Part shown: positions 42,328-64,000 of the stretch, in pieces
How positions within the stretch are numbered: the first letter of the stretch is position 1
Layout of the letters: every line of letters starts with the position of its first letter
Source: an uncultured Acidimicrobiales bacterium
GTDB lineage: Bacteria; Actinomycetota; Acidimicrobiia; Acidimicrobiales; DATKAS01
NCBI GenBank assembly: GCA_963773315.1
Contig: CAVZAF010000002.1
Coordinates: 411,410-475,409 of the forward strand
DNA length: 64,000 nt
Direction: 5' to 3'
Made by a program: the position numbers and the translations under genes
The notes under the pieces: model-generated
The model's database searches: none
What the model saw: only the letters and a program-made list of their open reading frames with translations
Told to the model about the DNA's origin: nothing

Positions 42328-44119
42328 GTGTCGCCGTTCCCGCGAAACCTCTGGCAGGCTGAGCCCGTGAACATCCACACCCACAGCTACGACGCCGTGA
42401 TCGTGGGGGCAGGGGGGGCCGGCCTACGGGCGGCGATCGAGGTGGCCGGCAAGTGCCGCACCGCCGTCATCACCAAGCTCTATCCCACCCGCTCGCACAC
42501 GGGTGCTGCGCAGGGCGGCATGTGCGCCGCGTTGGCCAACGTCGAAGAGGACTCGTGGGAGTGGCACACCTTCGACACAGTGAAGGGCGGCGACTACCTC
42601 GTCGACCAGGCCGCGGCCGAGATCATGTGCCGCGAGGCGATCGACGCGGTGATCGAGCTCGAGCACTTCGGCTTGCCGTTCAACCGCACACCCGAGGGTC
42701 GCATCGACCAGCGCCGGTTCGGCGGCCACACCCGCAACCACGGCGAGGCTCCGGTGCGTCGGGCCTGCTACTCGGCCGACCGTACGGGCCACATGATCTT
42801 GCAGACGCTGTACCAGCAGTGCGTGGCGCGTGACGTCAACTTCTTCAACGAGTACCAGGTGCTCGACGTCGTGTTCGAGGGGGAGGGTGCCGATCGTCGC
42901 GTCGCTGCTGCAGTTGCGTACGAGCTCGCGCACGGGCGACCTCCACGTCTTCCAGACGAAGGCGATCCTGTTCGCGTCCGGCGGCTTCGGGAAGATGTTC
43001 AAGATCTCGTCGAACGCGCACTCGCTCACCGGCGACGGGCCCGGCCTTCTCTACCGGCGGGGCATCCCCATGGAAGACATGGAGATGTTCCAGTTCCACC
43101 CGACGGGCATCTACAAGATGGGGATCCTCCTGTCCGAGGCCGCACGCGGCGAGGGCGGCATCCTGCGCAACGCCGACGGTGAGCGGTTCATGGAGCGCTA
43201 CGCCCCGACGGTGAAAGACCTCGCGCCGCGCGACATGGTGAGCCGGGCCGAGCTGCTCGAGATCCGCGAGGGACGCGGATGCGGTCCGAACAAGGATCAC
43301 ATCATGCTCGACCTCACTCACCTGCCTCCCGAGCAGATCGACGCCAAGCTGCCGGACATCACCGAGTTCGTGCGCACGTACTTGGGCATCGAGCCGAAGA
43401 AGGATCTCATCCCGATCCAGCCGACCGCGCACTACGCGATGGGTGGCATCCCGACGAACGTCAACGGCGAAGTAGTGGTCGACGCCGAGGGAACGGTGCT
43501 GCCGGGTCTGTACGCCGCGGGGGAGTGCGCGTGCGTGTCGGTGCACGGAGCCAACCGGCTCGGCACCAACTCGCTGCTCGACATCGTGGTGTTCGGCCGA
43601 AGAGGCGGAAACGCAATGGCCCAGTTCGTTGCGACCGCAACGATGCCCGAGCCCCAGGCCGACGCGGCCGACGACACAAAGGCGCGCGTCGAGCGGCTCC
43701 TCGCCTCGGCGGGCAACGAGAACGTCGCCGACATCCGCAAAGAGCTGCAGGACGAGATGATGGACAAGGCGTCGGTGTTCCGCACCGAGGAGAGCCTCGG
43801 CGCGATGCTCGACATCCTCGCCGACCTGAAGGATCGCTACGAGCGCGTCGGCGTGCAAGACAAGGGCGCGGTGTTCAACTACGACCTCACCGAAGGCCTC
43901 GAGCTCGGTTACCTGCTCGACCTCGCGGAGTGCCTTGTGGTCTCGGGTCGAGCCCGCACCGAGAGCCGCGGCGCGCACTGGCGTGAGGACCATCCACTGC
44001 GCGACGACGCGAACTGGATGAAGCACACGCTCGCGTGGCGCGAGGACGATGGCACGGTCCGCCTCGGCTACAAAGAGGTCGACTCCGGGAAGTACCTACC
44101 GATGGAACGGAAGTACTGA
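42328..44119 (+). CDS. sdhA: Succinate dehydrogenase / fumarate reductase flavoprotein subunit (one apparent insertion at about 42932)
   Basis: The translation is YDAVIVGAGGAGLRAAIE...TRSHTGAAQGG...HPTGIYKMGILLSEAARGEGG...HYAMGGIPT...SRGAHWRED. The alternative start is GTG 42367. Confidence 0.9.
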
Positions 44120-44120
44120 G

Positions 44121-44821
44121 ATGGTCGCTGTCCACCTCAAGGTGAAGCGCTACGACCCCGAAGTCGACAAGAAGCCTCGCTGGCAGGAGTACGAGGTCGA
44201 GGTCGACTCGAAGGATCGAGTGCTCGACGCGCTGCACGAGGCGAAGTGGCACCACGACGGCACCCTCACCTTCCGTCGCTCGTGCGCGCACGGGGTGTGC
44301 GGCTCCGACGCGATGGTCATCAACGGGCAGAACGGCCTCGCGTGCGGGCAGCTGATCGAGAACGTGGGCACTGACATCACCCTCGAGCCAATCCGTGGGC
44401 TCCCGGTGATCAAGGACCTCGTCGTCGACATGGAGCCGTTCTTCGCCCAGTACCGGTCGATCCTCCCGTACCTCATCAACGGGGACGACCCGGGATACAA
44501 GGAGCGCAACCAGTCGGCCGACGACCGCGAGCGGTTCGACGACACGACGAAGTGCATCCTGTGCGCCTGCTGCACGACTTCGTGCCCCGTGTACTGGGGA
44601 AACTCCTCGTACGTCGGCCCGGCGGCGATCGTGAACGCGCACCGCTTCATCTTCGACTCGCGCGACCAAGCGGCCGAGCAGCGCCTCGACATCCTGAACG
44701 AGAAGTCCGGCGTCTTCCGCTGCCGCACGGCGTTCAACTGCACCGACGCGTGCCCCGCGGCATCAAGGTCACCCAGGCGATCGAAGAGGTGAAGCGGGCC
44801 CTGCTGTTCGACCGCGTCTGA
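44121..44821 (+). CDS. sdhB: Succinate dehydrogenase / fumarate reductase iron-sulfur subunit (one apparent deletion in a C-run at about 44756)
   Basis: The translation is FRRSCAHGVCGSDAMVINGQNGLAC...CILCACCTTSCP...CRTAFNCTDACP, then RGIKVTQAIEEVKRALL in the shifted frame. Confidence 0.9.
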
Positions 44822-44960
44822 CGCCGAACACCTGATCAGGGGCCCGTTCCACCTGTTGAGCGGGCATTTCGCATCGCCGGGGATCGCTCCATAGACTCCC
44901 CCGGACCTTTCTGCCAGATTGCGCCGCGAGACGCGCGCGGCCGCACACACAGGGGAATTC

Positions 44961-47322
44961 GTGACGCACATCCTCGCCGCCGAGGGCGGCTACCAAGAGT
45001 TCACGCTGTCGGGCGGCGAGTGGGCGATTCTGATCGCCTGCGCGCTGACGGCGCTCCTCGCCATCGTCGTCGGCTTCGTGCTGGCGCGCCTGGTGCTGGC
45101 CGAGGACGCGGGCACCCCGAAGATGCAGGAGATCGCCAAGGCGATCCAGGAGGGTGCCAGCGCGTACCTCAGTCGTCAGTTCAAGACGATCGTCCTCATC
45201 CTCATCCCGCTGGCCGTCGTGGTGTTCCTCACGTCGGTTCGGGTGGTGAAGCCGAACGAGACGAATGCGTTGTCGTTCGGAGAGTCCGGTCTTTACCGCA
45301 CGCTCGCGTTCATCCTCGGCTGCTTCATGTCGGGCCTCACCGGCTTCATCGGGATGACCCTCGCCGACACGCGGCAACGTGCGCACAGCTGCGGCGGCGA
45401 GGACTGGTTCGATGCCCGCGGCGCTGAAGGTCGCGTTCCGCACCGGTGGCGTCGCCGGAATGTTCACGGTCGGCCTGGGCCTGCTCGGCGCGACCGTCAT
45501 CATCATGATCTTCCAGAACACGGCGACAGCGATCCTCATCGGATTCGGCTTCGGCGGCTCGCTGCTCGCTCTGTTCCTGCGAGTAGGCGGCGGCATCTTC
45601 ACCAAGGCCGCGGACGTGGGGGCTGACCTCGTGGGCAAGGTCGAGGCGGGCATCCCCGAGGACGACCCCCGCAACCCGGCAACCATCGCGGACAACGTGG
45701 GCGACAACGTCGGTGACTGCGCCGGCATGGCCGCCGACCTGTTCGAGAGCTACGAGGTCACGCTCGTCGCGGCGATCATCCTCGGCGTCTCGGCGTTCCA
45801 CTCCATCTACCCGGACGACCCGAGCAAGTGGGCGCTCGGGCTCGTCTTCCCGCTCGGCTGCCGCGCCATCGGCGTGCTCGCGTCGATCGTCGGGCTGTTC
45901 TCGGTGCGGGCGACGGAGAAGGACAAGTCGGCGATGACGCCGATCAACCGGGGCTTCCTCGTCGCCGGCCTGCTCACCGTGGTCGGCACGCTCGTCTTCG
46001 CGCTCGTCTATGTCGGAAACGACAAGGGCACGCTCTCGAACCCCGGTTGGCGAGTGTTCGCCGCCGTGGTCATCGGTCTCGTGCTCGCACAGATCGTCAG
46101 CCGGCTCACCGAGTACTTCACCTCCACCGAGACGCGACCAGTCCGTGAGATCGCCGAGGCGGCCCGTACGGGACCCGCGACCACCGTGCTCTCGGGCATC
46201 GCCTCGGGACTCGAGTCTTCGGTGTGGGCGATCATCGCGATCGCAATTGCGATCGGCACTGCGATCGCACTCGGCGGTGGGAACCTCCAGTTCGTCTTCT
46301 ACCTCGTCGCCCTCACCGGCATGGGCATGCTTGCCACGACCGGCGTCATCGTGTCGGAGGACACGTTCGGCCCGGTGGCCGACAACGCCGCCGGCATCGC
46401 CGAGATGTCGGGTGAGTTCACCGGCGAGGCCGAGCGCATCATGGTGAGCCTCGACGCGGTCGGCAACACCACCAAGGCCGTCACCAAGGGCTTCGCGATC
46501 GGCTCAGCGGTCATCGCCGCGGTCGCGCTCTTCGCATCGTTCATCGAGACGATCGGCGCCGAGCTCAAGCTCGACGCGGTCGGGAACGCGCTGTTCCGCG
46601 ACCCGCTGACCCAGATCAACGTCGCCGACCCGAAGACGTTCATCGGTCTTCTCATCGGCGGATCGATCGCGTTCATGTTCAGCTCGCTCGCGATCCGTGC
46701 GGTCGGTCGCACTGCCGCGACCGTTGTGCAGGAGGTCCGCAGCCAGTTCGCCGACGGCAAGATCATGAGCGGCGAGAAGCTGCCTGAGTATGGCCCCGTC
46801 ATCGACATCTGCACCAAGGCGTCACTGCGTGAGCTCGCCACCCCGGCACTGCTCGCCGTGCTCTCGCCGGTCATCATCGGGTTCGGCCTCAACTACTTCG
46901 CGCTCGGTGCGTTCCTCGCTGCGGTCATCCTCACCGGGCAGCTCATGGCGAACTTCCTGTCGAACTCCGGTGGCGCGTGGGACAACGCGAAGAAGTACAT
47001 CGAGGACGGCCACGAGGGCGGCAAGGGCTCCGACGCTCACAAGGCCGCGGTCATCGGCGACACCGTCGGCGACCCGTTCAAGGACACCGCCGGCCCCGCG
47101 CTCAACCCGCTCATCAAGGTGATGAACCTGGTGTCGCTGCTGATCCTGCCCGCCGTGATCAACCTCCAGGACAACGACGGCGCCCGCTTCACGATCGCGG
47201 GCGGTGCGCTCGTCATCCTCCTCGGAGCGATCGCGTTCGCCAAGCGCAGCACGGGCTCGATGACCGACACACCGTCGGCACCGGCGGCCGCAGCCGCGCC
47301 GGCCCCACAACCCGTGAGCTGA
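44961..47322 (+). CDS. hppA: Membrane-bound H+-translocating pyrophosphatase (one apparent insertion at about 45366)
   Basis: The translation is MQEIAKAIQEGASAYLSRQF...NVRTAAAAR...GGGIFTKAADVGADLVGKVEAGIPEDDPRNPATIADNVGDNVGDCAGMAADLFESY...GGAWDNAKKYIE...DTVGDPFKDTAGPALNPLIKV. Confidence 0.92.
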
Positions 47323-47366
47323 CGGGGCGCGCAGTCGCGCGCCAGGAGCGACGCGAGCCCGCAGAC

Positions 47367-48065
47367 TCAGCCGTCTCGCGACTCGTCAACCGAGGACTCG
47401 GTCGGCGCGGCCCCGGTGGCCTTCTTCTTCTGCCGGCGGTACTCGACGAACACAGGGATGAGCGACACGACGATGATCCCGAAGATGATCGGCAACAGGT
47501 ACTTGTCGATGTTCGGGATCGTGTTGCCGAGCCAGTAACCGAGCAGCGTGACGCCGACGGCCCACAGGAACGCACCGATCACGTTGTAGAAGACGAACGT
47601 GCGGTAGCGCATGGTGCTGACGCCCGCGACGATCGGAGCGAACGTCCGCACGACGGGAACGAAGCGGGCGAGGATGATGGTCTTCGACCCGTGGTGCTCG
47701 AAGAACTCCTCGGCTCGCTCGACGTTCTCGTGCTTGAACCAGCGTGAGTCCGGTCGCTTGAAGATGCTCGGCCCGACCTTCTTGCCGAACGCGTAGCCCA
47801 CCTGGTCGCCGATGAACGCGGCGAGAAAGCAGCCGAGGAGCACGACGGCGAGGTTCAGCTTTCCTTGCGATGCGAGGAGACCCGCGGAGAAGAGCAACGA
47901 GTCGCCCGGAAGGAAGAAGCCGACGAGAAGGCCCGATTCGGCGAAGATGATCGCGATCAGGCCGATCGTCCCGAACGTGCGGATCAGGTGCTCGGGGTTC
48001 AGGCTCAGCGTGGCCAGCACGTGCACGACGTCCGACCCTACGGGCCGGGCTCCCTCCGGAGCCAT
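47367..48065 (-). CDS. DedA family membrane protein
   Basis: The translation is IIFAESGLLVGFFLPGDSLLFSAGLL...FVPVVRTFAPIVAGVSTMRYRTF. Confidence 0.85.
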   Translation of the reverse strand: MAPEGARPVGSDVVHVLATLSLNPEHLIRTFGTIGLIAIIFAESGLLVGFFLPGDSLLFSAGLLASQGKLNLAVVLLGCFLAAFIGDQVGYAFGKKVGPSIFKRPDSRWFKHENVERAEEFFEHHGSKTIILARFVPVVRTFAPIVAGVSTMRYRTFVFYNVIGAFLWAVGVTLLGYWLGNTIPNIDKYLLPIIFGIIVVSLIPVFVEYRRQKKKATGAAPTESSVDESRDG

Positions 48066-48708
48066 TCATGCCAGCCGTCTTCGTTCATCACTCGTTCGAC
48101 GAGCAACGGGCCGCCAGCGGGCCGGTCGATGCGCAGCGGGGCCCGGAGGCCGTGCGGCATCTGGGCGGGCGGCTCCGGCCAGGTCAGGCGTCCCCACTCG
48201 TGCTGCCAGCCGGCCGATCAGGTCGATGCCGAGGCTCTCGTCGGCGATCAGGATCTCGCCGCTGACCGTCGCCTCGATCGAGTAGCCGTTGGGCCCCTCG
48301 ACGGGGTCGGCGGCGGACTCCCACTCGAGGTCGATGCCGAGGGGAACGAGCACGCCGCGCTGCGCGCCGAGCGCCTCGTCCGGATCGTCGAGCGCAACGG
48401 AGAACGCCTCGTTCGCAACGGTCCAATGCTCGAGCGACGTCTCGCACACGTGGTCGGCCCACAGCCCTTCACCCCGGATTGCCAGCGAGGTCGACGGCAG
48501 ACGCAGCTCGGTGTCGACGAGCGTGAGGAGCGGGTGGCCCTCACGCACCACCGCCGCCCAGTACCACGCCTCACGTGCATGCTGGCAGCAGCGTGACCGC
48601 GGCGACCGCACCGAACGTGCCGTCGATGTCCCAGGCTTCGAACGTCCATCGCTCTTGCCAGTCGTTCCCTTCGGGCTCGTGGCGGTGCTCGTCGAAGTCA
48701 GCGGTCAT
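48048..48708 (-). CDS. Hypothetical protein, last gene of the swivel-domain operon (two apparent frameshifts, about 48590 and about 48210)
   Basis: The translation is MTADFDEHRHEPEGNDWQERWTFEAWDIDGTFGAVAAVTLLP / REAWYWAAVVREGHPLLTLVDTELRLPSTSLAIRGEGLWADH...IEATVSGEILIADESLGIDLIG / WQHEWGRLTWPEPPAQMPHGLRAPLRIDRPAGGPLLVERV. The start overlaps the upstream stop as ATGA. I recognise no family. Confidence 0.5.
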
Positions 48709-49839
48709 GGGATCTGTTCGTAGTACGCAGCGCCGTCGTCCATGTTGCCCGCCGTGTTGTCGCCTTCGAGCATCGACACGAGGTCGTAGAGCGGCTGCGG
48801 GGATGTCGCGCGGGACGGTCCAGTCGAGCTCGTCGCCGATCCCCGCGACCAGCGCGAACGGGCGAAGAAACGAGAAGTAGACGTATGCGCCGCAGCGGAT
48901 CTTCTCGTTCCGGTCCATCGCTGCGATGTTGCGATAGTGGGCCGACTGCGCCGTGCGGACCGCTGCGACGATCGCGTCGATCTCGTCGAGAGGTACCGCA
49001 TGCAGCACCCCCGTCGTCTCGTCGGTCGTGTAGAGGCCGAAGCGCACGAGGCGGTCGAGGTAGTCCTCGGGCGTCGTGTACGACGTGCCGAAGTCGGTGA
49101 CCCGGAACCTCACATCGTCGAGCACCAACGCCGCAGTGAGGTTCGAGTAGGGCACGTCGCGCGGCGACGTCGCTCCACCAGAAGTCGCTGTCCGCGAGCT
49201 GCGCGAAGTCGCGGACGAGCATCACTTGTCCGGCTTGGCCGGGCACCGCGTAGGGCCCGGTGTCTTGCGCGCCGGAGCGCGTGTCGAACCACATCAGGAA
49301 CAGATAGCCGACGAGGGTCGCGTTGAGCTTCTTGATGAGCGAGCGCTGCTCGTCGTCGACGGCGACGGTGCCCTCGAGGAGCTGCCGCGGCAACTGCCCC
49401 TTCGTACGGGCGCACGTCGTCGGTGTCCCACGCCTGCAGGTTGCCGTCGCCCCGGAAGGCGAGCGTTGCGCGCTCCCAGAAGTCGAGCACGCTCGAACGC
49501 GCCGGTCGGGGTCGTTCGCCTCGAGCGCCCATGCCCGGCGACGACCTTGCGGCCGAGCAGCCAGAAGTTGGGGACGCCCCAGAGGTGCACCGTGTTGATG
49601 CGGGTGCCCGGCCGGCGGCCGATGCGGCCGATGTCTTCCGCCGGCATCGCGGCGTCGATGGCCCGGATCATCTCGGGGTAGCGATACCAGCACTCCACGC
49701 ACGCGGTGATCACATACGCAGTCACCGGGATCAGCTTCGACTCGAGCGATGTGCGCTCCGCGCTCGAGCGCTTGCGCGATGGGCGAGTGATAGGCGATGA
49801 GGCGGTTCGCCTCGGCCTTGTGATCGACGGGTCAGCCAC
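48705..49839 (-). pseudogene. Hypothetical protein of about 377 aa, middle gene of the swivel-domain operon, broken by at least six apparent frameshifts as given
   Basis: Protein-like segments appear in alternating frames: HKAEANRLIAYHSPIAQALER / SLESKLIPVTAYVITACVECWYRYPEMIRAIDAAMPAEDIGR...WGVPNFWLLGRKV / WALEANDPDR / SVLDFWERATLAFRGDGNLQAWDTDDVRPYEG / QLPRQLLEGTVAVDDEQRSLIKKLNATLVGYLFLMWFDTRSGAQ...DFWWSDV / PYSNLTAALVLDDVRFRVTDFGTSYTTPEDYLDRLVRFGLY...DELDWTVPRDI / LYDLVSMLEGDNTAGNMDDGAAYYEQIP. I recognise no family. Confidence 0.45.
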
Positions 49840-50177
49840 GGACGATCCCCGTCGCGCCCGAGCAGTCGACCTCGACCTCGGCGTCGTTCGCGGGCTCCCC
49901 GGACGAGAAGGTGCACGCCATCACGCACGGGACTTGGAACTCGCGGCTCACGATCCCGATGTGGCTCCGCGGCGTGCCGCCGGTGCAGATGACCGCGGTG
50001 AGCTCGTGGTAGATCGGCGCGAGGAACGTCGCGCCCGCGTCGCGCACCGAGCGCGACGACGCCCTCGGCTCCGGTGTCCATGAGGGCGAGCACGTCGTCG
50101 GGACTCTCGATCGCTCGGAACCGGCCCCGCACCGACGCGGCGTCGAACACCTTCGTGCCCTCGCCGATCTGCTGCAT
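49832..50177 (-). CDS. Stand-alone PEP-utilizing-enzyme mobile (swivel, phosphohistidine) domain protein (one apparent insertion at about 50045)
   Basis: The translation is MQQIGEGTKVFDAASVRGRFRAIESPDDVLALMDTGAEGVVAL / VRDAGATFLAPIYHELTAVICTGGTPRSHIGIVSREFQVPCVMAC. This matches the pattern ...ILV..dtsP.......giVtegGg.tSHaAIvaRe.giPav. Confidence 0.7.
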
Positions 50178-50590
50178 GGCCGGGCACACTACCGACGTGG
50201 CGAAGTATCTGAGCCCGGAGTGGATCGACGAGCTCGACCGCGCCGCGCAGGCGAGCGACCTCGTGCGTCGCCGCTGCTCCCGAGCTCGTGTTCGTCGTCG
50301 AGCACGAGGTCACAGGCCTGCCCGAGGGCACTGTTCGCTACCACATCGCGTTCGATCGTGGCTCGGCGCGGCTGAGGCCTGGCGGGGCACCCGACGCGGA
50401 CGCGTGCTTCACCGAGGACGTCGAGACACGCCGTCGCCGTGAGCAGCGGTGCGATCAACGCGCAGAGCGCGTTCATGAGCGGACGACTTCGGATTCGTGG
50501 CGACATGGACAAGCTGATCGCGGCGCAGCGGGCAATCGAGGCGCTCGACGTCGCGCTCCAAGGGCCGAGAGCGAGGACCACGTATGCCTG
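50176..50590 (+). CDS. SCP2 sterol-binding domain protein (two apparent frameshifts, about 50262 and about 50428)
   Basis: The translation is AKYLSPEWIDELDRAAQASDL / PELVFVVEHEVTGLPEGTVRYHIAFDRGSARL / AVSSGAINAQSAFMSGRLRIRGDMDKLIAAQRAIEAL. The start is uncertain (ATG 50176 or GTG 50197). Confidence 0.62.
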
Positions 50591-51405
50591 AGCTTCCCGA
50601 GCTGCAGGCGCACGCCGAACGTCTCACGACGGGATGGGGCGGCAACGTGCTGCGCAAGTTCACGCCGCTCTCCTTCACGGCGATGAAGACCGCGGTGCCG
50701 CCCCCCTCCGATGCGCTCGACCATGCGCTCGAGGGTGTCGGCCGCCGCGGCAAGTACCTGCTGCTCGACTTCGGCGCGCTCACGTTCGCGGTGCACCTCA
50801 TGCAGGGCGGACGCCTGAAGCCCGACCCCAAGCAGGCAGCGAAGGTGAAGGGGGGCGTGGCGCGCTGGGTGTTCGACGATCGCAGCGCGCTCATGCTCAC
50901 CGAGGCCGGTCATGAGAGACGGGCAGGAGTGTGGACCGACCCGGAGGTCGCGACGGCCGGTCTCGGGCCCGAAGCCGATCAGGTCACGCCCGAGGAGCTC
51001 GCTGCGCTGTTCGCCGAGCACTCGATGCGGGTGCACAAGTTCCTCCGTGATCAGGGGTGCATTGCGGGGCTCGGCCGTCGCCTGGCGAACGAGGTCTGCC
51101 ATCGCGCCAAGATCTCGCCGTTCGCGTCGACGACGAAGCTCGGAGTCGCTGGCGCGCAGGCCGTTGTCACCGCGATCCACGACTGCGTCGACGAGTCGCT
51201 CGCGTACGAGCGCAGCCGCGACGACATGAGCTCGTCAGCCGACCGTCCCGGCGCGGTGCACCACCGCACGGGCCAGGCGTGCCCGGTGTGCGGCGACACG
51301 GTGCGCGAGGTCTCGTACTCCGCGTACACCGTGAACTACTGCCCGACGTGCCAGACCGGCGGGAAGGTGCTCGCGGACAACACGACGAGCAAGTTCCTCA
51401 AGTAG
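50584..51405 (+). CDS. Fpg/Nei family DNA glycosylase / AP lyase
   Basis: It starts MPELPEL (N-terminal Pro nucleophile). The H2TH region is FLRDQGCIAGLGRRLANEVCHRAKISP. The zinc finger is CPVCGDTV...YCPTCQTGG. Confidence 0.88.
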   Translation: MPELPELQAHAERLTTGWGGNVLRKFTPLSFTAMKTAVPPPSDALDHALEGVGRRGKYLLLDFGALTFAVHLMQGGRLKPDPKQAAKVKGGVARWVFDDRSALMLTEAGHERRAGVWTDPEVATAGLGPEADQVTPEELAALFAEHSMRVHKFLRDQGCIAGLGRRLANEVCHRAKISPFASTTKLGVAGAQAVVTAIHDCVDESLAYERSRDDMSSSADRPGAVHHRTGQACPVCGDTVREVSYSAYTVNYCPTCQTGGKVLADNTTSKFLK

Positions 51406-51420
51406 CGCGGACCGACGCGG

Positions 51421-52054
51421 TCATGACTGCTCGACCCCCTCGCCCACATCCGCCATGTTTCCGGTGCCGGGGATCCCGGCGGCAAGGGCGTAGCGCAACG
51501 TCACCGTGCCCTTCGGCGAGGTGCCCGCGGGCTCGACGAGGGTGAGGTTGGCGGGCACGGTGCCGCCGGAGAAGACCTTCTTTCCGCCCCCGAGCACGAT
51601 CGGGAAGACCCACAGCGTGAGCTGGTCGAAGAGCCGCTCGGCGAGCAGCGTCTGCACGAAGTCGAGGCTGCCGATGACGTGCACGTTCGCGTGACGATCT
51701 CGCACCCGGCGCACCTCCTGCGCGAGGTCGGGCCCGAGCAGCGTCGAGCCGTCCCATTCGAGCGTCGGGTTGCTCCGTGACGCGACGTACTTGGGCACCT
51801 TGTTGAAGACCTGGGCGATCTCGTTCGTTTGGTGGGGCCAGTAGGCGGCGAAGATGTCGTAGGTCTTCCTGCCGAGCAGCAGCGCGTCGAGCTTTGCGAT
51901 GCCGGCGCCCACCTGCTCGCCGATGACCGTCGTCGGCCACCGGCGCCTGCCAGCCACCGAACTCGAAGCCGCCGTCGGTGTCCTCGTCAGGTCCGCCGGG
52001 CGCCTGCGCGACCCCGTCGAGGGTCGTGAACAGATCGATCTGGATGACTCCCAT
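51421..52054 (-). CDS. Dihydrofolate reductase-like (RibD C-terminal domain) family protein (one apparent insertion at about 51940)
   Basis: The translation is MGVIQIDLFTTLDGVAQAPGGPDEDTDGGFEFGGWQAP / WPTTVIGEQVGAGIAKLDALLLGRKTYDIFAAYWP...LTLWVFPIVLGGGKKVF. Confidence 0.8.
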
Positions 52055-52131
52055 GGTGCTTCCCTTTCCGTCGAGGTGATGTCCTGACCCCTCTACGAAC
52101 GGGACAGCGCGGTTTCGACGTCAGGTGTCCC

Positions 52132-53016
52132 TCAATTGACTGTGTCGAGCGTGACCTCGTTTCGCAGTGCCTCACCGCGCGCGTAGCGAGCGAGGTTGTC
52201 GACCAGCAGGTCGTCGTAGCGCTCGTAGCGGGCGAAGCCGCCCGCCGAGTTGTGCGGCGTGAGGATGACGCTCGGGTGAGACCAGAGTGGGTTCTTCCTC
52301 GGCAGCGGCTCGGTCGCCATCACGTCGAGGATCGCCGCTTGGGGACGACCGCGGCTGAGCGCCGACAGCAGCGCGCCTTCGTCGACGAGCGAGCCTCGAG
52401 CGATGTTGACCAGGACCGAACCCTCGGCCATCGAGGCGAGGAACGCGGCGTCGACGAGCGGGGGCGCCTCCGGTGTCGAGGGAAGCGAGAGCACGACGAC
52501 GTCGGCCGAGGGCAGCGTCGAGACCAGTTCGGTGGGCGCGACAACCGCATCGACCGGTTCGGTGCCAGTCGGGTTGCGTCGGCACCCGATGACACGAGCG
52601 CCGAACGCCCTCGCCCGCACCGCGACCGCTTGACCGATCGTGCCCAGGCCGACGATCAGCCATGTGGTCCCCGCCACCTCGCGGAACTGGTGCCGGTCCC
52701 ATGCTCGGCGGCGCTGGGCGTCGCGCCATCGCTCAGCCTGCTGGAAGTGGTCGAGCACCGACCGCACCACGAACTCGCTGATCGGGATGTCGGTGACGTG
52801 CGCGTTGGTGAGCCGGACGCCACGCTCGAGCACCGCGGTGAACACGGGGCTGTCGAGGCCCGCGTTCGGGACGCTGAACCAGCGAAGCGTCGCGCTGCGC
52901 ATCACCATCCCGAAGAACGGTCGCAGCGCGCCCTCGTAGGCATCGAAGAGATCGAACGCGGCTGCCGCCACCTCGATGTCCGACGCATCCGCCGTCAGCG
53001 AGCCGTCCTTCTGCAT
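52132..53016 (-). CDS. D-2-hydroxyacid dehydrogenase family (NAD-binding) protein
   Basis: The translation is WLIVGLGTIGQAVAVRARAFGARVIG (GxGxxG)...LVNIARGSLVDEGAL...DVMATEPLP...LTPHNSA. Confidence 0.85.
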   Translation of the reverse strand: MQKDGSLTADASDIEVAAAAFDLFDAYEGALRPFFGMVMRSATLRWFSVPNAGLDSPVFTAVLERGVRLTNAHVTDIPISEFVVRSVLDHFQQAERWRDAQRRRAWDRHQFREVAGTTWLIVGLGTIGQAVAVRARAFGARVIGCRRNPTGTEPVDAVVAPTELVSTLPSADVVVLSLPSTPEAPPLVDAAFLASMAEGSVLVNIARGSLVDEGALLSALSRGRPQAAILDVMATEPLPRKNPLWSHPSVILTPHNSAGGFARYERYDDLLVDNLARYARGEALRNEVTLDTVN

Positions 53017-53087
53017 CGGGACGGGCTCGTACTCCGCAGGAAGCCGCGCCTCGATTCGGTCGAGGGTGCCCTGTGTGACGAGGAGCT

Positions 53088-54074
53088 TCAGATGAGACCC
53101 AGCTCTCGCACCGCGTCACGCTCTTCGGCGAGCTCGGCGACCGACGCGTCGATGCGTCCGCGCGAGAAGTCGTCGATGTCGAGGCCCTGCACGACTGCCC
53201 ACTCGCCGTTGGTGCACGTCGCCGGGAACGACGAGATGAGGCCCTCGGCGACCCCGTAGGACCCGTCGGACGGCACCGCCATGCTCGCCCAGTCGCCGTC
53301 GCCGGTGCCGAGCGCCCACGTGCGCATGTGGTCGACGGCCGCGTTCGCCGCCGACGCCGCGCTCGACAGGCCGCGCGCTTCGATGATCGCTGCACCGCGC
53401 TTCTGCACGGTCGGGATGAAGTCGCCCTCGAGCCAGGCCTGGTCGTTGAGGAGCTCGGCCGCGTTCTTGCCGGACACCTCGCAGTGGAACAGGTCCGGGT
53501 ACTGCGTCGCCGAGTGGTTGCCCCAGATCGTCATCTTCTTGATGTCGGTGACGTGCACGTCGAGCTTGCTCGCGAGCTGCCCGACCGCCCGGTTGTGATC
53601 GAGCCGCGTCATCGCGGTGAACCGCGAGGGATCGATCTTCGGCGAGTTGTTCATCGCGATCAGGCAGTTCGTGTTCGCCGGGTTGCCGACGACCAGGATC
53701 TTGATGTCGACCGCCGCGCTCTCCGAGAGCGCCTTGCCCTGTCCGGTGAAGATCTTGCCGTTGATGGTGAGCAGATCGGAGCGCTCCATGCCCGCCTTGC
53801 GGGGCACCGATCCGACGAGCAGCGCGTAGTTCGCGTCGCCGAACGCAGTGTTCGGGTCGTCGGTCTGCACGACGTCCTCGAGCAGAGGGAACGCGCAATC
53901 TTCGAGCTCCATCGCGACACCACGCAGCGCGTCGAGCGCGGGGGTGATCTCGAGGAGCTGCAGGATGACGGGCTGGTTGGGCCCGAGCATCTCACCCGAC
54001 GCGACGCGGAAGAGGAGGCTGTAACCGATCTGGCCAGCCGCGCCGGTGATGGCAACGCGAACAGGAGCAGGCAT
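53088..54074 (-). CDS. mdh: Malate dehydrogenase
   Basis: The translation is [31 protein letters not shown]...[15 protein letters not shown]...MTRLDHNRA...IWGNHS. The start could instead be GTG 54083. Confidence 0.93.
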
Positions 54075-54124
54075 GCCCCGCACCCTACCGAAGGGGTGCG
54101 GGGCTCACGCCCTGGCTCCCGCGA

Positions 54125-55543
<1,419 letters not shown>

Positions 55544-55589
55544 CCATGTCCTCCCTGTGCTGGTGCGCCGACCATAGGTCGGGCGGTGC

Positions 55590-56454
55590 TCAGGGGGCCA
55601 GACCGAGGTTGGCGTAGATCTCGCGGGTCGCGGTGGAGCGGTTGAGCGTGTAGAAGTGCAGGCCGGGCGCGCCGGCGTCGAGCAGCGCCGCGGCCAGTTC
55701 GGTGGCGGTCTCGACACCCACAGCGCGGACGGCATCGGGCTCGTCGGCCACCGCGTCGAGCCGGGCGGTGAGCCACGCCGGGATCGCCGCGCCGCTCGAG
55801 CTGGGCCATGCGAGCGACCGAGGCGATGTTCGTGATCGGCATGATCCCGGGGATGACCGGCTTGTCGATGTCGCGAGCCGCGAGATCGTCGACGAGGCGC
55901 AGGTACGCGTCGACCTCGAAGAAGAACTGCGTGATGGCGAAGTCGGCGATGCGGAGCTTCGCGGCGAGATGGTCTCGGTCGGCCTCGGCGCTCAGCGCCC
56001 TGGGATGCACCTCGGGGTGGGCGGCGACCCCAATCGAGAAGTCGGGGTTGTGGTCACGTACATGCTCGACGAGCTCGAGCGCGTAGCGGTACTCACTCGG
56101 TCGCGCGTTCGCCGGGTCGTTCGGCGCATCGCCGGCGAGCGCCAAGATGTTCTCGACCTCGACTGCGTCGTAGGCATCGAGGATCTCGCCGATCTCGTCG
56201 CGCGTGTGGCTCACGCACGTGAGGTGCGCCATCGGCGTCACCGGCGTCTCCTTGCGGATCCACGCGACCGCCTCGTGCGTGCGCCGCCTCGTGCCACCGC
56301 CCGCGCCATAGGTCACCGACACGAACGAGGGATGCAGCACGTCGAGCTCGGCGATCGTGCGGCCGAGCGTCAGCCATCCCGCTTCGGTGCCGGGCGGTGA
56401 GAACTCGAACGAGTAGGTGCGCCCCGCGGCGAGCAGCTCGGCGATGTGCGCCAT
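55590..56454 (-). CDS. metF: Methylenetetrahydrofolate reductase (one apparent insertion at about 55797)
   Basis: The translation is [13 protein letters not shown]...[13 protein letters not shown]...MAHLTC...ALAGD...ITQFFFEVD...GIMPI, then [14 protein letters not shown]...[16 protein letters not shown] in the shifted frame. Confidence 0.88.
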
Positions 56455-62162: not shown

Positions 62163-62247
62163 TTTACGGTGGAGCACCTGGTACTCATCGGCACCCCCGG
62201 TCTCGAGTTCAGGCGTAGGTCGTTCGGCCCAGCGGTAGCGTGCGTTC

Positions 62248-64000
62248 ATGACCGGACGGTTCAGCTACTCCCGGTGGGACGGCACGCAGGTCGGGTTCGA
62301 TCTCGACGCCGATGCGATCCTCGCGGAGATCACCGACGACCTGCTGTACCACGGCGATCTGAACAACGCCCTGCGGCGGATGATGCAGTCCGGGCTTCCG
62401 CGACCGCAACGGCGAGCGGCTCGAGGGCATCCGCGAGATGCTCGAGAAGCTCCGGCGCAAGCGCCGTGACGAGCTCGAGCGCTACGACCTCGGCGGGCGT
62501 CTACGACGACATCGCGCGAGGAGCTGCGCGAGGTGGTCGAGCAGGAGCGCGAGGCGCTCGACCAGCAGATGCAGCAGGCGCGCGCAGTCCGGCGACCAGC
62601 GTCGCCAGGAGACCGCGCAGCAGGCGACCGAAGAGCGGCACATGCAGCTCGACATGCTGCCTCCCGATCTCGCCGGTCAGGTGCGCGACCTGCAGCAGTA
62701 CGACTTCCAGTCGCCCGAGGCCCGCGCAGCGCTTCGAGGAGCTGCTCGACAAGCTCCGCCAGCAGCTCGCGCAGAGCTACTTCAACCAGATGGCCGGCGC
62801 GATGAGCAACGTCGACCCGAGCAGATGCAGCGGATGAAGGACATGCTCAACGCGCTGAACGAGATGCTCGCTCAACGGGAACGAGGCGAGGAGCCCGACT
62901 TCGAGAGCTTCATGCAGCGCTTCGGCGACTTCTTCCCCGAGAACCCGCAGAGCCTCGACGAGCTGCTCGAGATCATGGCGCAGCGGATGGCGGCGATGCA
63001 GTCGATGCTCAACTCGATGACGCCCGAGCAGCGCGCCCAGCTGCAAGGGCTCGCCGAGCAGCTGCTCGAAGACATGGACCTGCGCTGGCAGGTCGATCAG
63101 CTCGGCGAGCACCTGCGCGGCCTGTTCCCGCAGATGGGGTGGGATCGCCGGTACGACTTCAGCGGGCAGGACCCGCTGGGCTTCGCCGAGGCGGCACAGC
63201 TCATGGAGCAGCTCGGCGACATCGACCAGCTCGAGAACCTGCTCCGCGGCGCCACCAACCCCGGAGCGCTGGCGGAGGTCGACATCGATCGCGCCCGCGA
63301 CCTGCTCGGTGACCAGTCAGCCCGCAGCCTCGAGCGCCTCGCGGAGCTCGCCAAGATGCTCGAGCAGGCCGGGCCTGATCGAGAACAAGGAAGGCCGCTA
63401 CGAGCTGACGCCGAAGGGCATCCGCAAGATCGGGGCGAACGCGCTCTCCGATCTCTTCGCCAAGCTCGCCAAGGACAAGATGGGCAAGCACGAGCTCGAG
63501 CGCAGCGGCGTCGGGCACGAGCGCTCGTACGAGTCCAAGCCCTACGAGTTCGGCGACCCGTTCAACCTCGACATCCACCGCACGATCCGCAACGCGATCC
63601 AGCGCACGGGCGGCGGCACTCCGGTGCGGCTGTCACCCGACGACTTCGAGGTCGAGCGCACCGAGACGCTGGTGCGGTCGAGCACCGTGCTCATGCTCGA
63701 CCTGTCGCTGTCGATGCCGATGCGCGACAACTTCCTCGCCGCCAAGAAGGTGGCGATGGCGCTGCACTCGCTGATCTCGAGCCAGTTCCCGCGCGACTTC
63801 CTCGGCATCGTCGGGTTCTCCGAGATCGCCCGCGAGCTCAAGCCCGAGCAGCTGCCCGAGGTGTCGTGGGACTTCGTCTACGGCACGAACATGCAGCACG
63901 GGTTCCTGCTGAGCCGCCGCATGCTCGCTCGTCAGTCGGGCACGAAGCAGATCATCATGATCACCGACGGCGAGCCGACCGCCCACCTCCTGCCGGACGG
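62248..64000 (+). pseudogene. VWA domain-containing protein (partner of the AAA ATPase); the 3' end lies outside the window, and there are at least seven apparent frameshifts as given
   Basis: The translation is MTGRFSYSRWDGTQVGFDLDADAILAEITDDLLYHGDLNNALRRMMQSG..., then segments in alternating frames. It ends in the VWA core VLMLDLSLSMPMRDNFLAAKKVAMALHSLI...IIMITDGEPTAHL. Confidence 0.75.

Follow-up and report, generated by a model that had tools for sequence, protein, structure and literature searches.

The g1-g2-g3 locus and its conservation in Acidimicrobiia

We have analysed a stretch of 64,000 nucleotides (nt; the window) from contig CAVZAF010000002.1 of an uncultured Acidimicrobiales bacterium, with a GC content of 66-71% throughout, in which three consecutive genes of the minus strand, termed here g1, g2 and g3, are packed so tightly that each stop codon overlaps the next start (Table 1). 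The first gene codes for a stand-alone phosphohistidine swivel domain of the phosphoenolpyruvate (PEP)-utilizing type, the second for a protein of a family without annotation, and the third for a short relative of the DUF7065/DUF7064 proteins. The run of three overlapping genes had been recognized at almost these coordinates in a preliminary description made from the sequence alone; the start of g3 was placed there correctly, while this gene ends at 48038 and not at 48048. The GTG start of g2 overlaps the stop of g1 by 8 nt within GTGGCTGA, and the end of g3 overlaps the start of a co-directional DedA gene (48065) by 28 nt.

After repair of its frame the g1 protein of the window matched PF00391 (PEP-utilizers) and no other family, at 35.4 bits against a cut-off of 23.1 (39.7 bits for the orthologue in locus L002), in agreement with the earlier view that this protein of about 114 amino acids (aa) is a swivel domain only. 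It carries the TGGTPRSHIGIVSRE motif (CTGGTPRSHIG), with the catalytic His encoded at 49963-49961; this His stands after a Gly-rich loop, as expected of PF00391 proteins (pattern given as T/S-x-x-G-G-x-x-x-H by PMC12167813). Scanning a single genome for each species gave 308 loci, 80 of which were examined, all of them from Acidimicrobiia; they cover Acidimicrobiales, Microthrixaceae (including Candidatus Microthrix parvicella), Ilumatobacteraceae, Iamiaceae and Rhabdothermincola. The phospho-carrying His was kept in 79 of 79 loci and the sequence G-[GT]-x-R-S-H-I-G-I-V-S-R-E in 78, the remaining one having ASH and VG for RSH and IG; the Gly-rich loop before the His is slightly variable, many orthologues having a single Gly. 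The gene g1 stands immediately upstream of g2 in 79 of the 80 loci (the remaining locus begins at the edge of a contig), with a median overlap of 8 nt, so that the association first noticed in one genome recurs almost without exception for this pair, and g3 accompanies it in 74 loci in a long (49) or a short (25) form. The three genes are real, and they are conserved in hundreds of species of actinobacteria.

No family match was obtained for g2 in Pfam or NCBIfam. The stitched protein retrieved more than 1600 homologue clusters (about 378 aa, no Pfam domain), the best of them 90% identical, and its identity across Acidimicrobiia is 60-66%; R126, R190 and D251 are invariant, and R101 and R212 nearly so, even when relatives of about 25-30% identity are included. 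The AlphaFold2 model (P0001, 61 homologues; predicted local distance difference test score, pLDDT, 92.3; predicted template modelling score 0.91) consists of an N-terminal helical bundle followed by a sheet of seven strands against which two long helices pack, and only partial, non-significant overlaps with lipid-binding helix-grip proteins were seen by Foldseek. Since the level of identity, the invariant Arg and Asp residues and a ratio of nonsynonymous to synonymous substitution rates (dN/dS) of 0.14 point in the same direction, g2 appears to be a real, constrained and enzyme-like domain. Profile search, Foldseek and hhalign lent no support to g2 being a divergent ATP-grasp or PPDK_N domain, nor did Foldseek or profile search support a substrate domain of the type of rifampicin phosphotransferase (RPH) or HpeH. 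Neither g2 nor g3 could be placed in the preliminary description; with the repaired frames this still holds for g2, which is without a match in Pfam, NCBIfam and the PDB, whereas g3 was assigned by profile and structure searches to the superfamily of 25-phosphosteroid lyase (25-PSL) and AttH.

An exhaustive profile search with g2 yielded 551 representative clusters, and in at least seven of these the PEP-utilizers swivel domain (PEPut) and g2 are fused in a single chain, either alone (P0242, P0324, P0275, P0352) or with an additional C-terminal domain of about 230 aa (P0295, P0365, P0383); g2 followed by the C-terminal domain was also found (P0323, P0363). The hosts of the relatives are Conexibacter, Paraconexibacter, Solirubrobacterales, Baekduia, Pseudonocardia, Actinomycetospora, Gordonia otitidis and Burkholderia ambifaria, and those of the fusions include Conexibacter, Paraconexibacter, Pseudonocardia and Gordonia. 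The fusion protein of Gordonia otitidis is WP_007239118, and the genes of B. ambifaria AMMD surround Q0B252. The adjacency in 79 of 80 loci, the fusions in distant lineages and the invariant His together support the view that g1 and g2 act like a single enzyme divided in two. The split phosphotransfer enzyme proposed earlier is upheld in this form for g1 and g2 and not for g3, which falls in a lyase/hydratase superfamily; a swivel shuttling between two unknown proteins is not what the evidence suggests, g2 being no ATP-grasp or PEP/pyruvate domain and g3 no phosphotransfer protein.

The g3 family and the distant relatives of the module

The long form of g3, of about 310 aa, contains both DUF7065 and DUF7064 (PF23213 and PF23212), and 44 full-length copies keep the motif G-Q-R-D-H-S-W-G-V-R-D-W-W, one of them with E for Q. 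Its model (P0121, pLDDT 93.1) is an all-beta double barrel, for which 25-PSL (9g4c/9fzn; E value 2e-10, TM score 0.64) and AttH (2ich) were the best Foldseek matches, followed by fungal decalin Diels-Alderases and kievitone hydratase. It is clear that g3 belongs to the AttH/25-PSL beta-barrel superfamily, together with the Rv3169 family (NF053593) and other DUF7065/DUF7064 proteins. The GQRDHSWGVR of g3 aligns with GSRDRSWGVR of 25-PSL, and the Asp of this stretch is replaced by Asn in the product-bound structure 9g4c, which suggests, short of proof, that the Asp of the RDHSWG motif is catalytic. Literature searches on DUF7064, DUF7065 and Rv3169 gave no functional information.

The g3 of the window is of the short form (about 220 aa), a clear homologue of the first half of full-length g3, with which it aligns in hhalign at a probability of 99.9 (E value 2e-37) over residues 5-176 of 222; in tblastn only residues 53-175 of the full-length protein are covered in the window. 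The proteins of the window clade keep the N-terminal beta-barrel, a degenerate GRWRH(E/Q)WG and the last strands, most of DUF7064 being gone; compared with the Rv3169 family, other DUF7065/DUF7064 proteins and AttH, the window copy retains the first barrel alone. The GQRDHSWG motif is lacking in the window, and the short forms outside its clade have no match to it at all. Neither the g3 fragments of the window nor the L006 orthologue gave a Pfam match; the latter is an intact open reading frame (ORF) of 222 aa, the L007 and L009 copies align nearly over the full length without stops, and the short form of this clade is under purifying selection (omega 0.16-0.25). The idea that g3 is a lineage-specific truncated pseudogene had rested on a frameshift apparently common to L001 and the window; it was dropped because the two frameshifts concern different bases 10 nt apart, because the L006 gene is intact, and because the short form is found in 25 of the 80 loci and is under purifying selection. 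The window-clade protein is shortened and has lost the motif whose Asp is replaced in the deposited variant of 25-PSL; a part as ligand-binding accessory is more probable for it than lyase activity.

In distant lineages the module stands among other genes. One Paraconexibacter copy (L086) lies in a run of cytochrome P450, aldehyde dehydrogenase, short-chain dehydrogenase/reductase (SDR), the PEPut-g2 fusion with its C-terminal domain and a PPDK_N-PEPut protein of 509 aa, after which come two further genes. The first of these codes for a 360-aa protein (L086:11820-12902), a true homologue of 25-PSL (phmmer E value 7e-36 to 9fzn), and the second for a 656-aa fusion (L086:12971-14941) of an APH/EcKL-type kinase with DUF7065 and DUF7064, which serves as a Rosetta stone tying the orphan barrel family to phosphorylated substrates. 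A DUF7065/64 gene is found directly downstream of the g1-g2 fusion in the second Paraconexibacter copy (L088) and in another genome (L089). In Conexibacter (L085) the fusion is set among beta-oxidation-type genes, together with a 25-PSL-like protein and with fragments of PPDK_N-PEPut and of DUF7064, and in Pseudonocardia (L087) an RPH-like gene, P450, Rieske oxygenase and a DUF7065/64-like protein lie upstream. In B. ambifaria (L090/L091) a DUF7065 gene is divergent from a PEPut gene (about 250 aa), which is followed by g2 with the C-terminal domain and then by PPDK_N-PEPut. The ATP-grasp/PPDK_N-type partner that the preliminary description had proposed to look for was accordingly located in Paraconexibacter and B. 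ambifaria, where it follows the g2 gene directly, and as a fragment in Conexibacter; the 64-kb window holds none. Swivel, g2 and a DUF7065/64-type barrel thus recur together across phyla, often with an ATP-grasp-swivel protein added.

Further features of these loci were observed. The Conexibacter protein at L085:194-1261 is a clear 25-PSL homologue too, and the L086 and L085 copies are near P450 or beta-oxidation-type genes; a kinase-lyase dehydration route may exist outside Sterolibacterium, where it was described. The B. ambifaria module (L090/L091:2286-14181) is set among FabH-like ketosynthases, acyl carrier proteins, SDR and a KS-AT-ACP-TE polyketide synthase (PKS), an indication that it serves some uncharacterised pathway for a lipid or polyketide in AMMD, a cultured strain that is genetically tractable; literature searches on this cluster gave no functional information. 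Acidimicrobiia g2 does not have the C-terminal region of about 230 aa (about 545-777 in P0295; also in P0383, P0323, P0363 and P0339), for which Pfam gave no match; part of this region resembles a winged helix, and the motif S-x-H-T/D-V/I-W-M/F-E-L-H-E-D-L/Y is strictly conserved in it.

Frameshifting insertions and the surrounding genes

In a plot of the GC content at third codon positions (GC3) the coding frame jumps repeatedly inside each of the three genes, while GC3 remains at 0.8-1.0. The window was aligned over 13.2 kb (42666-55889) to the metagenome-assembled contig L001 (94% identity); alignments at 86-92% were obtained with L005 and L006, the representatives of two other species. These are Acidimicrobiales metagenome-assembled genomes (MAGs) with isolate names beginning MFD. 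All frameshifting events in g1-g3 and in the neighbouring SCP2 gene proved to be insertions of one or two bases, as the three references agree, and none is common to L001, L005 or L006; g2 also carries one real in-frame +3. Twelve of them fall in the 2.1 kb of g1, g2 and g3, all three of which are intact in L006. The density is about 5.5 per kb at 48038-50591 versus about 0.7 per kb in the remaining 10.6 kb open to comparison, an approximately 8-fold excess. A reference-free hidden Markov model of GC3 gave short frame segments across the whole window with the largest cluster at 48037-50256, and the locus had rightly been called the most frameshift-dense part of the window in this sense, albeit not the sole dense one: five short segments in 540 nt (62277-62817, plus strand), in overlapping ORFs at 62169-62837, form a second run, probably another insertion patch.

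When the indels were stripped from the window genes, zero stop codons were left, and dN/dS against L006 was 0.27 for g1, 0.14 for g2 and 0.22 for g3, indistinguishable from the values of the L001 and L005 orthologues against L006 and similar to those of the neighbouring SCP2 and DedA genes. Single-base indels peculiar to the window also occur in the genes of H+-pyrophosphatase (H+-PPase), the succinate dehydrogenase Fe-S subunit, Ldh, MTHFR and RibD_C, and L001 has insertions of its own too. In L005 (MAG MFD02159.bin.2.18) the H+-PPase gene (L005:7567-9960) contains about 35 single-base insertions within 2.4 kb, at sites where L001, L006 and the window are all concordant with one another; such a dense patch in an essential gene indicates that local insertion patches are a recurring artefact of assemblies of this kind. 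Several indels of the window and of L001 stand in CTCGAG or TCGA contexts, and a systematic (e.g. methylation-related) basecalling error could be involved.

From the polarity of the indels, the dN/dS values, the absence of stops after indel removal and the equivalent patch in L005 it follows that the frameshifts in g1-g3 are misassembly and not gene decay. The rival explanation, that the frameshifts are genuine and have left the organism with dead genes, could appeal to the crowding of twelve insertions well above the level of the flanks and to a g3 that is shorter than that of many relatives and has lost its conserved motif. It does not account for insertions of one or two bases found in the window only, for GC3 staying high, for indels in housekeeping genes of the same window and in the H+-PPase gene of a sister MAG, or for a short g3 that five related species keep intact under purifying selection; we regard decay as highly improbable and already close to refuted. 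Of the two possibilities raised beforehand for this locus, decaying or poorly assembled, it is the second that the comparison bears out. As a practical lesson, dense local frameshift patches in long-read MAGs can look like pseudogenisation.

Upstream of g1 a divergent SCP2 gene was found in 75 of the 80 loci, usually with an Fpg/Nei gene beyond it, and DedA and H+-PPase genes often lie downstream of the module; DedA is co-directional with g3 in the window clade, and on the opposite strand or further off in other clades. The CATG at 50175-50178 can supply the ATG of both g1 (minus) and SCP2 (plus), and with the alternative SCP2 start, GTG at 50197, the distance to the g1 start codon is still only about 20 nt. 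Start codons that overlap or lie so near to each other imply overlapping promoters or leaderless transcripts. A scan of the locus for promoters and terminators found none, such a scan being uninformative in DNA of 69% GC. The anti-phage profiles of PADLOC matched neither g1, g2, both forms of g3 nor the fused g1-g2 protein, and a defence function was rejected.

Table 1. Positions of the genes at the locus and of the insertions and deletions detected in the window
Feature	Position	Strand	Remarks
g1, stand-alone PEP-utilizers (phosphohistidine swivel) protein, about 114 aa repaired	50177-49832	minus	ATG 50177, TGA 49834-49832
g2, family without annotation, about 374 aa	49839-48705	minus	GTG start at 49839, stop at 48705
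g3, short DUF7065/DUF7064 form, about 222 aa	48708-48038	minus	ATG at 48708, ATGA overlap with g2
DedA/VTT-domain membrane protein	47367-48065	minus	intact ORF; PF09335 in orthologous loci
SCP2 (sterol-carrier-like lipid-binding) gene	50176-50591	plus	divergent from g1; orthologue matches PF02036
g1, one frameshifting insertion	about 50048		+1; absent from L001, L005, L006
g2, nine frameshifting insertions	49829; 49765, 49533, 49527, 49503, 49491, 49386, 49164, 48802		+2 at 49829, +1 at the others
g3, two spurious insertions	48583, 48209		+1
SCP2, two spurious insertions	50428, 50268
Isolated single-base indels	45365, 51929, 53232, 44756, 44825, 55798, 42931		H+-PPase N-terminus; RibD_C; Ldh; succinate dehydrogenase Fe-S subunit; intergenic; MTHFR; unnamed gene

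Possible chemistry and competing explanations

PEP synthase (PpsA), pyruvate phosphate dikinase (PPDK) and enzyme I of the PEP-dependent phosphotransferase system (PTS) have the PF00391 swivel and the catalytic His in common with g1; nevertheless their ATP-grasp domain and/or PEP-binding TIM barrel stand on the chain of the swivel itself, and g1 and g2 have neither. The nearest characterised parallels to the proposed kinase are HpeHI, CreHI, PpsAB and the single-chain RPH, in which an ATP-grasp component loads the swivel His and the latter phosphorylates a hydrophobic substrate in a second domain (PMC12167813, PMC4844700). The module would resemble these enzymes in its proposed use of the swivel for carrying phosphate to a small hydrophobic substrate. 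It shares with the two-component dikinases HpeHI, CreHI and PpsAB (phenylphosphate synthase) the division into separate polypeptides, and in Paraconexibacter and B. ambifaria also an ATP-grasp (PPDK_N) gene adjoining the substrate-side gene. The differences are considerable: in the two-component dikinases the substrate domain is a homologue of the rifampicin-binding domain of RPH and shares a chain with the swivel, standing before it, whereas no detectable similarity of g2 to RPH, including that domain, or to PPDK, PpsA or enzyme I was found, and the swivel of the module is a separate protein or, in the fusions, N-terminal. Furthermore the ATP-grasp protein of the distant loci bears a second swivel domain of its own, and at the Acidimicrobiia locus no ATP-grasp (PPDK_N-type) component was seen by tblastn in the 64-kb window or in the gene lists of L001-L004.

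For the pairing with g3 the nearest parallel comes from Sterolibacterium denitrificans, where 25-hydroxysteroid kinase (25-HSK) and then 25-PSL act on the substrate, a tertiary alcohol being made ready for elimination by its phosphorylation (PMC8449060, PMC7411048), and the lyase follows an APH-type kinase (PMC8449060). These enzymes (PDB 9fzn, 9g2i, 9g4c) are a kinase and a beta-barrel lyase for a hydrophobic alcohol, as is proposed here, and 25-PSL has the fold and the RD(H/R)SWGVR motif in common with full-length g3. Unlike g1-g2, 25-HSK is a single APH-family kinase which uses ATP directly without phosphohistidine; g3 is a remote relative and not an orthologue of 25-PSL, the window copy being short and without the motif; and the two genes are not clustered in S. 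denitrificans (PMC8449060).

Taking these data together, we consider it about an even bet that g1 and g2 constitute a phosphohistidine-dependent phosphotransferase of new architecture, acting on a hydrophobic alcohol and often paired with phosphate elimination. The chemical steps, all of which we infer, would begin with phosphorylation of the swivel His of g1, for which the donor could be a site on g2 or a trans-acting ATP-grasp-swivel protein. The phosphoryl group would then pass from g1 to a substrate bound by g2, most likely to the hydroxyl of a hydrophobic molecule of lipid, isoprenoid or steroid-like nature, and the full-length DUF7065/64 partner would probably remove the phosphate, the net result being an ATP-driven dehydration or a related elimination or cyclisation. 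The connection to phosphoester chemistry is drawn from the DUF7065/64 genes after the fusions, the fold and the motif shared with 25-PSL, and the 25-PSL homologue and APH fusion of L086. The hydrophobic substrate is suggested by the SCP2 gene, the conservation of which fits a lipid substrate, and by the P450, acyl-CoA dehydrogenase, enoyl-CoA hydratase, monooxygenase and PKS genes of the distant loci.

It should be emphasized that several findings weigh against this interpretation. Nothing significant was found for the g2 model in the PDB by Foldseek (best E value 0.29, TM score at most 0.13) nor for the g2 profile among PDB sequences, the hhalign probability of g2 with PPDK_N was 0.08%, and g2 shows no recognisable domain for binding a nucleotide or PEP. 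Nor did a loading partner turn up nearby: tblastn over the 64-kb window found no encoded nucleotide- or PEP-binding domain, and L088 and L089 have no ATP-grasp gene within 8 kb. The 25 loci with a short g3 without the motif, among them the window, and the six of 80 without g3 within 5 kb mean that coupling to a lyase cannot be essential to g1-g2. The sequence similarity of g3 to 25-PSL is remote (profile E value 0.027 over 46 residues, hhalign probability 3.7%), orthology with 9fzn was not detected at this level, and the fold of the superfamily also houses hydratases and Diels-Alderases. Finally, synteny within one class may partly reflect shared ancestry.

These weaknesses leave room for two other explanations. 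The beta-barrel protein could be a hydratase, cyclase or pericyclase (CrtC, kievitone hydratase or Fsa2-like) without a phosphoester intermediate, g1-g2 then harvesting a high-energy phosphoester in reverse, acting as phosphatase or mutase, or activating a different group; in its fold full-length g3 resembles kievitone hydratase and the decalin-forming Diels-Alderases nearly as closely as it does 25-PSL, the sequence link to 25-PSL is weak, and 25-HSK is fully reversible, tertiary phosphoesters being high-energy (PMC8449060). Nevertheless, structural comparison ranks 25-PSL and AttH first, the Asp that is replaced in the product-bound PDB entry belongs to the motif common to g3 and 25-PSL, a fusion of APH kinase with DUF7065/64 exists, and bona fide 25-PSL homologues stand in the same gene runs as g1-g2; all this ties the branch of the superfamily to phosphorylated substrates, and makes a barrel chemistry free of phosphoesters unlikely in our judgement. 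We hold it to be quite unlikely that g1-g2 is a regulatory phosphorelay like the nitrogen PTS, in which g1 would be the carrier, g2 a sensor or regulator and the g3 neighbourhood incidental, since components such as HPr and EIIA were seen in none of the loci, the association with DUF7065/64 or 25-PSL-like proteins recurs in Acidimicrobiia, Thermoleophilia, Pseudonocardia and Burkholderia, and the loci lie amid catabolic or PKS enzymes, compatible with a metabolic role. What speaks for such a relay is that swivel domains do hand phosphate between proteins in the PTS, that g2 has no recognisable substrate- or nucleotide-binding fold, and that the C-terminal extension of the fused relatives resembles a winged helix and has the conserved helical SxHTVWMELHEDLL, an extension which the Acidimicrobiia g2 does not possess.

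The interpretation of g1-g2 as a phosphotransferase can be carried further, to a version that we hold to be less likely than not: g2 would be an unrecognised catalytic fold which, together with the swivel, phosphorylates tertiary or otherwise unreactive alcohols of lipids or isoprenoids, and with DUF7065/64 lyases would form a widespread 'phosphorylate-then-eliminate' dehydration module. It would be core in Acidimicrobiia, would have been recruited into catabolic and polyketide clusters of Thermoleophilia, Pseudonocardia, Gordonia and Burkholderia, and would be a third architecture of swivel-dependent kinases beside the PpsA/PPDK and RPH/HpeHI types. An unprecedented phosphorelay from swivel to swivel, starting at the PPDK_N-swivel protein, might be part of it.

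Acidimicrobiia are abundant in soil and wastewater, and more than 300 species-level genomes of this class conserve the domain of g2, for which no relative has been solved or annotated. Two architectures of the swivel histidine are known, that of PEP synthase, PPDK and enzyme I and that of RPH with its two-component relatives, and the module would add another. Since it is present also in the culturable Gordonia otitidis, Conexibacter and Burkholderia ambifaria AMMD, its function is directly testable. That the module is repeatedly paired with relatives of 25-PSL, which was solved recently, provides a concrete hypothesis, a phospho-activated elimination on hydrophobic alcohols, which would also cover the large orphan DUF7065/DUF7064 (Rv3169) family.

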